This document shows positions 26,791-29,448 of a stretch of DNA of 48,001 bases, piece by piece. The notes beneath the pieces are model-generated. The model saw only the letters and a program-made list of their open reading frames with translations. It was not told where the DNA came from and did no database searches. The first letter of the stretch is position 1, and each line of letters starts with the position of its first letter. The DNA is taken from contig CAIOHN010000192.1 of NCBI GenBank assembly GCA_903858105.1, positions 1-48,001 on the forward strand. Reading direction: 5' to 3'. Source of the DNA: an uncultured Pseudomonadota bacterium (GTDB taxonomy: Bacteria; Pseudomonadota; Gammaproteobacteria; Methylococcales; Methylomonadaceae). A program made the position numbers and the translations under genes.

Positions 26791-27114
26791 TTACCAAACC
26801 TCCGCTGGCGCTTTCAAAGCTTCTACCGGCGTGCCGCCCAGCAAATGCTGTTCGATAATGGTTTTCACATCGTCTTTACTGACCTTGCCGTACATAATCC
26901 CTTCCGGGTAAACCAATACGCTGGGCCCCAACATGCATGGCCCCATGCAACCGGTGTTGGTCAGGCCGATACGTTCAAACAAATTACGAGCCTGAATTTC
27001 GGCCATAAATTCGTTCATGACCTCGGCACAACCGCTGGCAGCGCAAGAGCCGCGAGGGTGGCCTTGAGGGCGGGCTTGAGTACAGACGAAGACGTGTTTT
27101 TCGGGACGTGGCAT
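26791..27114 (-). CDS. Thioredoxin-like [2Fe-2S] ferredoxin (Shethna/FeSI type)
   Basis: HVFVC...RGSC, GCMGPC, GPSVLVYPEG and IIEQHL motifs. AGGA RBS before the start. Confidence 0.88.
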   Translation of the reverse strand: MPRPEKHVFVCTQARPQGHPRGSCAASGCAEVMNEFMAEIQARNLFERIGLTNTGCMGPCMLGPSVLVYPEGIMYGKVSKDDVKTIIEQHLLGGTPVEALKAPAEVW

Positions 27115-27193
27115 GATGGCTTCCTTTGTTAGTTGATCTGACAAGTTGTGTCGCGATAGCGACACCTTAATTCATCCAATCGCATTAAATTCT

Positions 27194-27531
27194 GCGACGG
27201 GTTTTACCCCCTATGCCGCGCCGAGCACCGCAGCTTTTGCTGAGAACAGCCCGCCAGGGGCGTCGCATGGATGCGGCGCGTTGATGAAGGGCCAGGGATG
27301 GCCCTTTCGGCAACCCTCGGCAAAAGCTGCGGAGCGCAGGATCAAAGCGGCATCGGGGTGTCTTTTCTTTTGGATACTTTTCTTTGGCGGAGCACAAATT
27401 CGCCTGGAGCGAATTTGAACAGCCGACAGGCTGGCCCGAAGGGTGAAAACCACGGATGGTTTTCATAGCGAAAGTATCTCGGCTGTCGGTCCGAAAACCG
27501 ACTTCAAAAAAAACCGTCGCCATAGCGACAC
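27194..27531 (+). repeat. Structured dispersed repeat, copy 1 (MITE-like or ncRNA-like), with a ~75 nt nested insertion
   Basis: Homologous to 28672-28935. Multiple hairpins show compensatory changes between the copies. Confidence 0.8.
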
Positions 27532-27571
27532 CCCAAAACCATCACCGAGTACGCACAAAAACTAAAGCAGC

Positions 27572-27886
27572 TTACGCCGCCGCCTTATGCTCATGCGTAA
27601 AACAATCCTTAGGACAAACCTTAGAACACGCCTCACAGCCAATACAATCAGCCGCATTCTTCAAACTCATCACCATGCTGTTGTCATCGTCCTCAAAGTC
27701 GCCGTAGTCGTCGCCAAAATCCTCAGCTTCCAATACATCGTCTTTTTCGACCAAATCAAACACATCGCGCGGACAAACCTTGAAGCAACGCCCGCAACCA
27801 ATACAGGTGCGTTGGTTGATATCGGTCACATACGAGGGTGTCCAGACTGTGCCGCCATAGGTAACGCCGGTTACAAAATCACTCAT
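27572..27886 (-). CDS. fdxB: Ferredoxin III, nif-specific (2x 4Fe-4S)
   Basis: WTPSYV, CIGCGRCFKVCP, an acidic linker and CIGCEACSKVCP, downstream of nifX. Confidence 0.88.
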   Translation of the reverse strand: MSDFVTGVTYGGTVWTPSYVTDINQRTCIGCGRCFKVCPRDVFDLVEKDDVLEAEDFGDDYGDFEDDDNSMVMSLKNAADCIGCEACSKVCPKDCFTHEHKAAA

Positions 27887-27895
27887 CATTCCCCC

Positions 27896-28111
27896 TTACG
27901 CAGCTTCGCTGCTGGCAGCCAAGAATTTTTTGTTTGCTTCATCCCAGGCTTTGCAGGCATCGTAAGCAGTTTGCGCGATACCCATCAGTTCGCCGTAGGC
28001 ATCCGGCAATCTATCTTCGATCAAATCGTGCAATTCCATCGCCGCCTCGCTGGCCAGGCGCTTGGTTTTTTTAACGTCTTTTTCCAGTTTTTTAAGTTCT
28101 TCGTCGCTCAT
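27896..28111 (-). CDS. CCE_0567-family (Rop-like) nif-associated small protein
   Basis: AMELHDLIEDRLP...AQTAYDAC motif in its typical position between DUF269 and fdxB. Confidence 0.8.
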   Translation of the reverse strand: MSDEELKKLEKDVKKTKRLASEAAMELHDLIEDRLPDAYGELMGIAQTAYDACKAWDEANKKFLAASSEAA

Positions 28112-28119
28112 AACTCACC

Positions 28120-28593
28120 TCAAGCTTCGGCTACTTCTCTGTATTGCGTGATCAAGCCCAAGGCTTTTTCCAGGGCTACGTCGGTTTTTTCGTTCAGATC
28201 AGCCAGGCTTGGAAAGCCAAAGCGATGTACATCGCGCAAGACTTTATCCACCACAATCAACTTGCCGACCAACACCAAAGCCCGGCCAAAACCTTCGTGG
28301 GTAATATTGATAACCGGCACCGCCATCAGTCCGGATTTTTTCTCGATCAAGGATGCGATGCTGTTGTAATAGGCTTTAACCCGCGCCAAGGTAATTTCGT
28401 CAGGATCGCCGACGATAGGGATTTCGCGTTTGCGTTCTTTGGTCAACACCAATGGGTCGATAACTTTCTCATCCGACCAGCCATCGTAGGTGTCGTAAGT
28501 ATCCAGGGCGCGAAGTTGTTTCAGCATTTCGGTAACGATATCTGAAGTCATAAACGGGTCGCCGGCTTCGACGACTAATGCTGCTTGGGACAT
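28120..28593 (-). CDS. NifX-associated nitrogen fixation protein (DUF269)
   Basis: QLRALDTY, IPIVGDPD, HEGFGR and LRDVHRFGF motifs. Confidence 0.88.
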   Translation of the reverse strand: MSQAALVVEAGDPFMTSDIVTEMLKQLRALDTYDTYDGWSDEKVIDPLVLTKERKREIPIVGDPDEITLARVKAYYNSIASLIEKKSGLMAVPVINITHEGFGRALVLVGKLIVVDKVLRDVHRFGFPSLADLNEKTDVALEKALGLITQYREVAEA

Positions 28594-28671
28594 GGTGGTT
28601 CTCCTATGGGTTTTTGTTTAAGCGGTCTTCGGTTCTTGGCCGCTGCAAAGTATTTGTGTTGTGTCGCAACC

Positions 28672-28935
28672 GCGACGGTTTTCCCCCGTATGCCGCGCCG
28701 AGCACCGCAGTGTTTGGCGAGATTTGCCCGCTAGGGGTGCGGCATGGATGCCGCACGTCTGCAGAGGGGCAGGAAGCCCCTTCTGCAGACCCTTGCCAAA
28801 CGCTGTGGAGCGCAGGATATCAGCGGCATCCGGGTCGCCTTTTCTTTGGTTACTTTCTTTTGGCGAAGCAAAAGAAAGTAACTCGCCGGCCGGTGCGAGA
28901 ACCGGCTTTAAATTAAGCTTCGCGATAGCGAAACC
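28672..28935 (+). repeat. Structured dispersed repeat, copy 2
   Basis: Shares TATGCCGCGCCGAGCACCGCAG, GGAGCGCAGGAT, GCGGCATC and the CTTTTCTTT...TACTTT...GAAAGTA block with copy 1. Confidence 0.8.
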
Positions 28936-28962
28936 ACATAAACCAGATTGCAAAATATCAAA

Positions 28963-29448
28963 TCACTCATCCCAGCCTTCGGATTCCATTTCATCAAACC
29001 GTTCTGGATTTGGGCCTTTATACTGATTGATCGCCTTGGCCAGCCAGCTCGACGGCCCGGCTTTCATCTCTTTCTGCAGGTCGCTAATCAAATCCTTGAT
29101 AGTGCTGCCTTCTTGAACTTTGACCGGCTGAATGCCTTGGGCAAGAATTTGATTGATCGCCGATGCGCCAATGGCTTGGCAATACACTGCCGCGCAACCG
29201 TCCAGCAATTGAATCTTTACCGATAATTTGTCTTCGTTGCCGTCCTGAGCCAGTTCACCAAATTGGGCGGCTTCCATTAGCTCCGACTGCTCTGGATCGA
29301 CCGCATACACGGCGAAGGATTTGGCAGAACCGAAATGCTGATTCACATGAACCATGTCGGTGGTGGCAAAAGCGACTTTAATAGCGGTTTCCATGGGCAT
29401 CCTCTGTTCGTGGGTATGCAAAACCTGCATGCGGCGAGCTAATGACAT
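28963..29448 (-). CDS. nifX: Nitrogen fixation protein NifX
   Basis: [30 protein letters not shown] and WLAKA motifs, directly after nifN. Confidence 0.9.

Follow-up and report, generated by a model that had tools for sequence, protein, structure and literature searches.

A dispersed repeat from the extended TwoAYGGAY family, with a predicted DNA-type triple helix, present twice within a nif gene run of a Methylomonadaceae bacterium

In an uncultured member of the Methylomonadaceae, two spacers of a nif gene run are each occupied by a dispersed repeat that belongs to the extended TwoAYGGAY family. Our reading, to which we assign a probability of about 0.55, is that this repeat likely folds as single-stranded DNA and is probably a non-autonomous mobile element; a RAYT-type HUH nuclease is the leading, more doubtful candidate for its mover. 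The window analyzed is a stretch of 48,001 nucleotides (contig CAIOHN010000192.1), in which the nif run lies on the - strand in the order nifE-nifN-nifX-(NifX-associated)-ferredoxin III-2Fe-2S ferredoxin. A preliminary description, made from the sequence alone, had reported two diverged copies of a structured element in spacers of this run. The observation is confirmed: identity between the copies is 79% in one block of 207 nt and 77% in another of 73 nt, a 74-nt insert of copy 1 lies between these blocks, and every stem pair that had been listed is found in the sequence. They are, however, merely two among many, since a profile built from 11 seed copies gave 40 nhmmer matches in the same genome (78% complete). 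Both copies are also matched by model R1, built from 37 standard-length copies out of 52 near-full ones (longer copies and some near-duplicates were omitted); its training rows include copy 2 and exclude copy 1. The features of the window are as follows.

27147..27165, no strand assigned: lone terminal-type hairpin 5' of copy 1, in a spacer that is paired in 13 of 25 relatives
27197..27539, + strand: copy 1, with insert, between the nif ferredoxin III gene and the 2Fe-2S ferredoxin gene (R1 E 8.5e-70)
27211..27350, + strand: 5' domain of copy 1, with a weak Rfam TwoAYGGAY match (29.6 bits)
27359..27390, + strand: pseudoknot 1 of copy 1, broken (TGTC versus GCGG)
27394..27467, + strand: secondary module of ~70 nt in copy 1, with three hairpins and one more CAYGGATG-loop hairpin, interrupting the triplex purine strand
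27479..27529, + strand: pseudoknot 2 and terminal hairpin of copy 1
28660..28678, - strand: lone terminal-type hairpin 5' of copy 2; in two relatives (L030, L017) it ends a - strand copy or stands alone
28674..28942, + strand: copy 2, complete and of standard length, between nifX and the NifX-associated gene (R1 E 1.6e-84)
28684..28834, + strand: 5' domain of copy 2 with a long basal stem (covariation)
28726-28737, + strand: small cGNNAg hairpin within the 5' domain of copy 2
28737-28756 and 28766-28780, + strand: two GGA-loop hairpins within the 5' domain of copy 2
28835..28882, + strand: pseudoknot 1 and predicted triple helix of copy 2 (covariation)
28835-28838 with 28863-28866, + strand: pairing of pseudoknot 1 of copy 2
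28840-28847, + strand: third strand of copy 2, parallel on the purine strand 28870-28877 of hairpin 28849-28882
28883..28906, + strand: pseudoknot 2 of copy 2, 28883-28886 with loop 28895-28898 of hairpin 28889-28906
28919..28932, + strand: terminal hairpin of copy 2, cGATAg loop

Both copies fold better than shuffled sequences on both strands and best on the + strand, with RNA z-scores of -6.0 (+) and -5.5 (-) for copy 1 and -9.6 (+) and -7.7 (-) for copy 2; DNA parameters gave the same result. Among the 37 homologues of R1, pairing holds in 97.9% of 3107 cells, and 41 of the 84 pairs change on both sides, counts taken over related rows. None of 500 shuffles equaled this, and slid controls reached 41-48%. 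The compensatory changes of the preliminary description are thereby borne out, as is its choice of the + strand: 59 of the 3107 cells are G-T (15 of them in one column) versus 17 A-C, and the triplex signature described below favors the same strand. In the 5' domain, a shared basal stem carries two hairpins in succession; helices 5, 7 and 8 covary there. Copies carry two to three ANGGA hairpin loops. Loop 1 reads CA-NGGA-YG in nearly all 37 rows (ANGGA in almost all, AYGGAY in 16), and loop 2 is mostly TGGGAA or AGGAA. An unguided mutual-information scan added two H-type pseudoknots, each of which pairs in 37/37 rows (3/4 and 2/4 pairs covary), and a third strand. The earlier fold had missed both pseudoknots and the triple helix, and its account of copy 1 is to be corrected for the insert and the broken pseudoknot 1.

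Columns 176-177 track columns 206-207 in parallel across the 37 rows: the first column pair is T.A-T in 19 and C.G-C in 18, and the second is C.G-C in 18 and T.A-T in 18, with one mismatch. Eight consecutive pyrimidine-motif triples are predicted, with loop 1 of the first pseudoknot as the third strand. Antiparallel pairing of this strand was rejected, as the perfectly complementary combination occurs in 0/37 rows. On a tree made without those columns, the two triplex haplotypes require at least six changes, some of which module swapping may explain. In 129 distinct matches from many orders, 239 of the 258 free test positions are T.A or C.G, 16 are G.T and 3 are neither. True T-A inversions face G in 16/16 cases (three haplotypes, two positions); a 17th T at the test positions is unpaired and faces C. 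In a prospective scan, the pattern required an inversion at a third position and allowed any base in the third strand opposite it; G stood there in 25 of 27 matches, with A and T once each; these matches are distinct, but many share metagenome samples, and the G.T-A rows are related, amounting to six haplotypes at three positions. The G.T-A rule is familiar from synthetic triplexes and is reportedly associated with work by Griffin and Dervan in 1989. As predicted from the alignments, the structure is a pyrimidine-motif triplex with a parallel third strand and G at T-A inversions, which is the DNA rule. The signature lies on the + strand in 35 of 39 class-level copies that had been found without the pattern, and on the - strand in one; of 1000 random genome windows, a single one contained it. 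In the window, the triplex of copy 2 is intact; copy 1 has a mismatched pseudoknot 1, and its insert cuts the purine strand.

Hairpin loops provide a second indication. In the 39 class-level copies, cGNAg triloops number 50 on the + strand and 1 on the - strand (4.3 in shuffles), cGNYAg loops 17 and 0 (2.0) and cGNRAg loops 2 and 0 (3.6), and no cUNCGg loop occurs; in 100 pattern-scan copies, among the matches listed, cGNAg was counted 103 times on the + strand and 9 times on the - strand (13.2). These counts use approximate dinucleotide shuffles and related rows. At the terminal hairpin, 64 of 72 copies have a GNYA loop. The possibility that cGNAg represents UNCG on the minus strand was rejected, since the stem is longer as a + triloop at 50/50 sites. 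GCGNAGC and GCGNNAGC mini-hairpins are described as far more stable as DNA than as RNA (PMC13037366). Because of the G at T-A inversions and the cGNAg and cGNYAg loops, single-stranded DNA is favored over a noncoding RNA, and we consider it fairly probable from these sequence patterns that the fold forms in DNA; RNA and DNA roles may coexist. Several points speak against the DNA reading: (i) the CA-NGGA-UG loops suit CsrA sites, an RNA feature; (ii) a G.U-A triple is present in the SAM-V riboswitch, which is RNA; (iii) in one DNA assay, G.T-A had no advantage over other non-canonical triplets; and (iv) the G.T-A rows are related, as noted above.

In nine further loci, the same 3' triplex module follows another 5' domain, a single hairpin with a TGTYTGAG...CGAGTT motif and no GGA loops. 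Because the module persists where the GGA domain has been replaced, we take the triplex, and not the AYGGAY loops, to be the conserved core.

The best-surviving alternative, which we consider unlikely, is that the element is an RNA: a multi-copy Csr/Rsm-binding transcript with a 3' triplex-pseudoknot that guards against decay, so that a gene enclosed by a back-to-back pair would end in a sense copy. The nearly constant CA-NGGA-YG of loop 1, weak matches to the Csr/Rsm clan and inserts that contribute further GGA hairpins all fit such a transcript; U.A-U-rich triplexes in pseudoknots are known RNA folds, and a sponge or transcript proposal for TwoAYGGAY is already in print. The G.T-A rule, the cGNAg and cGNYAg loops and the retention of the triplex module without the GGA domain argue against it. 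Moreover, csrA does not follow loop type (typed by eye): 2 of 20 GGA-type hosts, one of them 100% complete, gave no csrA match, and the gene is present in 8 of 9 non-GGA-type hosts. No sigma-70-like promoter was found in 27000-29100. The genome of the window itself gave no csrA match (assembly 78% complete).

Within the extended TwoAYGGAY family, the repeat forms a divergent branch, although its Rfam score does not qualify it as a member. No part of the window reaches an Rfam gathering score; copy 1 scores 29.6 bits (E 0.046) against RF01731, whose gathering score is 43, and the best score in the same genome is 35.7. No RF01731 match exceeded the cut-off in 5 congeners. At the E-value level, there was none in 20 pattern-scan loci, among the matches listed, and none in 20 class-level loci, where weak RsmW was the sole match. 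The link is provided by genomes G157 and G103, in which R1 overlaps above-cut-off RF01731 matches on the same strand. Of 21 above-cut-off matches, 18 were examined: 12, all from these two genomes, have the triplex module downstream, 2 have an interrupted module, and 4, from four other genomes, have none. RF01731 thus combines two or more types of element, since four above-cut-off matches (L238 to L241) have a long rod at their end and no 3' extension.

As in RF01731 (Weinberg 2010, PMC2864571) and the extended TwoAYGGAY RNA described for Pseudomonadota in a preprint (Li et al. 2026, bioRxiv 10.64898/2026.09.22.753630), two GGA-loop hairpins follow one another on a common, long basal stem. Matched to the wording of the preprint, the repeat further shares three extra hairpins, a 3' pseudoknot, divergent doublets, many copies in variable number, downstream REPs and variants with added AYGGAY hairpins. 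It differs in that AYGGAY is not found in both loops (the second usually deviates), in scoring below gathering, and in having no obvious 5' arrays of 5-6-mers beside the window copies, as judged by eye. The preprint suggests Csr sponging and mobility and settles neither; its main text has one pseudoknot, read as RNA, and does not use "triplex" or "triple" in the sense of a triple helix, whereas we find two pseudoknots and a predicted triplex. A literature search for a triplex or DNA reading of such repeats returned unrelated matches only. Thus, the family, which the preliminary description took for a possibly unannotated noncoding RNA, is not new and has for the most part been published; what specialists would not expect is the DNA-type triplex. 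The R200 repeat of Pseudomonas fluorescens SBW25 (320 bp, 47 copies; PMC2718517) may be this family, judging by its copy number, which is near the 48 TwoAYGGAY matches reported for that strain. No literature linking R200 and REPIN was found.

Copies are dispersed well beyond this genome. Matches to copy 2 occur in 21 of 24 congeners and in 6 of 16 further genomes of the same order, R1 matches 33 of 150 genomes of the class (one genome per family), and a GTDB pattern scan found at least 123 loci in many orders, including Methylomonas, Burkholderiales, Lysobacterales and Desulfobacterales. Phage records gave no match, and plasmid records gave partial 3' matches alone, none covering >80% of the query. 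Two viral contigs contain the triplex motif as a pattern match.

The orthologous nif spacers of 29 relatives occur in empty, single and paired states. At the nifX spacer, 28 were measurable, with 8 copies in the same orientation, 4 in the opposite one and 16 empty sites; at the ferredoxin spacer, 25 were measurable, with 13 back-to-back pairs, 3 singles, 2 fragments and 7 empty sites, and in one relative (L042) the pair at the nif spacer has collapsed. This variable state speaks against a nif-specific antisense role, and the special link to the nif mRNA that had been drawn from the strand of the fold is not supported; the copies look incidental to nitrogen fixation. For the element as a whole, the search for a clean insertion junction or a target duplication yielded none; at the nif spacers, empty and filled sites are too diverged to define a junction. 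In another relative, the ferredoxin spacer holds an ORF (NYN-like by eye) and no repeat, perhaps cargo minus its flanking pair. GTAG-type REP hairpins lie just 3' of the element in nine nif spacers, an arrangement that the preprint also reports for SBW25.

Divergent pairing is the prevailing layout. In two complete genomes, 80 of the 110 matches of at least 100 bits (20 weaker ones were dropped) sit in divergent pairs within 6 kb, and the 53 neighbor pairs within 6 kb comprise 40 divergent, 8 convergent and 5 tandem ones. From the pair lists, 40 regions were selected, of which 34 have a spacer >200 nt; GC is <0.48 in 28 of these and ORFs are present in 33. The ORFs include HNH, KAP NTPase, Mrr, deaminase, reverse transcriptase and IS110 and IS256 transposase genes, and many have no Pfam match; RAYT/Y1 genes or fragments occur in 6/34. 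No small nuclease was found among the 51 of 56 pair-spacer ORFs put through Pfam, and a crude motif screen of 29 additional divergent pairs likewise gave none inside them; one GIY-like ORF lies beside, not inside, a divergent pair. At one locus (L195, G016:C1:3604200-3610500), the pair surrounds a reverse transcriptase gene and an adjacent 302-aa ORF, also with IS110 and IS256; the reverse transcriptase locus is likely a retron-type defense locus. In the window, the hairpin at 27147-27165 is likely the remnant of a lost back-to-back partner of copy 1, and that at 28660-28678 the remnant of an oppositely oriented partner of copy 2.

Some copies contain inserted modules. Two families of ~70-nt modules, which start with ACAAAT and end in a CAYGGATG-type hairpin, occupy at least five positions inside the repeat, and a clean duplication of GA accompanies some of them; they occur at 27394-27467 of the window, in eight other contigs of the same genome and in four loci elsewhere, and a type-1 module sits in a different repeat at one further locus. 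These modules are possibly a second-level mobile element, to judge from their sequences. They may resemble the insertions known from ERIC repeats. Copy 1 appears to be chimeric: its pseudoknot 1 reads as the junction of two haplotypes that are intact in other copies, which suggests recombination.

Such exchange brings up a second alternative, in our view improbable, that the repeats are fixed recombination landing pads at which folded single strands promote exchange of enclosed genes or modules, with sites varying by loss and conversion. The low GC and unrelated accessory genes of the pair spacers agree with it, as do the collapsed pair in L042, the chimeric copy 1 and the fact that copy 2 is closer to its best paralogue-type matches (85-86%) than to copies at the same spacer (75-80%). 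It leaves unexplained how 50-60 copies reach new sites and span many orders, and selection for the triplex would still have to come from some protein or process. We hold that the element is probably mobilized and not merely reshuffled by recombination, although differential loss of ancestral pairs also accounts for the nif pattern. A third alternative, that the repeat is neutral and its covariation a mutational by-product of template switching, which perfects inverted repeats (inverted-repeat correction is an established process), would suit the very few wobble pairs but is largely refuted by the parallel covariation, because the third strand and its duplex partner form a mirror and not an inverted repeat, G tracks the T-A inversions, and loops and triplex are strand-asymmetric.

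The preferred reading of a single-stranded DNA element would work as follows. Replication or uptake would expose the folded strand to an enzyme that is encoded elsewhere and is most likely a RAYT-type HUH nuclease. Back-to-back pairs, with or without foreign genes between, would be the usual unit and would leave each strand with a folded copy 3' of the cargo, and pairs would decay to single copies and then to lone hairpins, as may have happened in this window. This agrees with the earlier suggestion of a structure-selected, non-autonomous mobile RNA or single-stranded DNA element, and with its observation that no transposase lies inside the element. Of the marks of a MITE, terminal inverted repeats are absent from single copies. 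The identity of the enzyme is the more doubtful part. RAYT-like genes are present in 28 of the 33 carriers and in 57 of the 117 other genomes (56 of 116 once the unpublished genome G094, which bears on nothing else here, is omitted), with a Fisher p of 3e-4 that ignores kinship and genome size. Against a RAYT mover, no RAYT match was obtained in 5 of the 33 carriers, and the majority of RAYT genes are situated outside pairs (3/19 and 3/25 matches inside; 38/44 outside pair spacers). Among the matches listed, the 187 ORFs beside the 123 loci, many with short flanks, contain no recurrent mover family. In the genome of the window, a RAYT-like gene lies directly 5' of an insert-bearing copy (C138:14460-14915), and a possible nuclease ORF, by eye, lies 3' of a copy on another contig.

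Three known systems invite comparison. REP, BIME and REPIN sequences with RAYT (PMC6006769, PMC3116915) are likewise described as extragenic and multi-copy, with inverted pairs, a single-strand fold and RAYT nearby, but they measure 21-65 nt versus ~265 nt in several domains here; a short hairpin with a GTAG foot clustered round a cognate RAYT is not what we find, since our repeat has no GTAG foot, RAYT genes are mostly elsewhere and true GTAG-type REPs are separate neighbors. BoxC/PIT/TM-ECO (Holder 2015, PMC4666352) is also an intergenic bacterial repeat at variable loci with intrastrand DNA triplex potential; it is described as a nearly invariant motif of 37 nt, whereas here a pyrimidine-motif triplex is predicted inside a pseudoknot of a large element, with three-way covariation. 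The MALAT1 ENE, telomerase and SAM-II/V (PMC4836648, PMC7583470), as described, share a T/U.A-T/U run that includes one C.G-C and lies in a pseudoknot loop or at a 3' end; these are RNA, and here inversions take G and the loops are of the DNA type.

More tentatively, the Rfam "RNA" family could be a widespread part of a single-stranded DNA machine with an intrastrand triplex, kept by evolution within tandem pseudoknots and following the G.T-A rule, in which pairs end cassettes that capture accessory and defense genes and move them by a single-stranded route. If the DNA reading is true, three-way covariation over many orders would be direct evolutionary evidence on the cellular role of DNA triplexes, and the 50-nt size of the module makes the triplex testable as DNA versus RNA oligonucleotides. 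TwoAYGGAY would then move from a candidate CsrA sponge to a DNA-level element and would indicate how foreign genes may come to occupy fixed intergenic slots.
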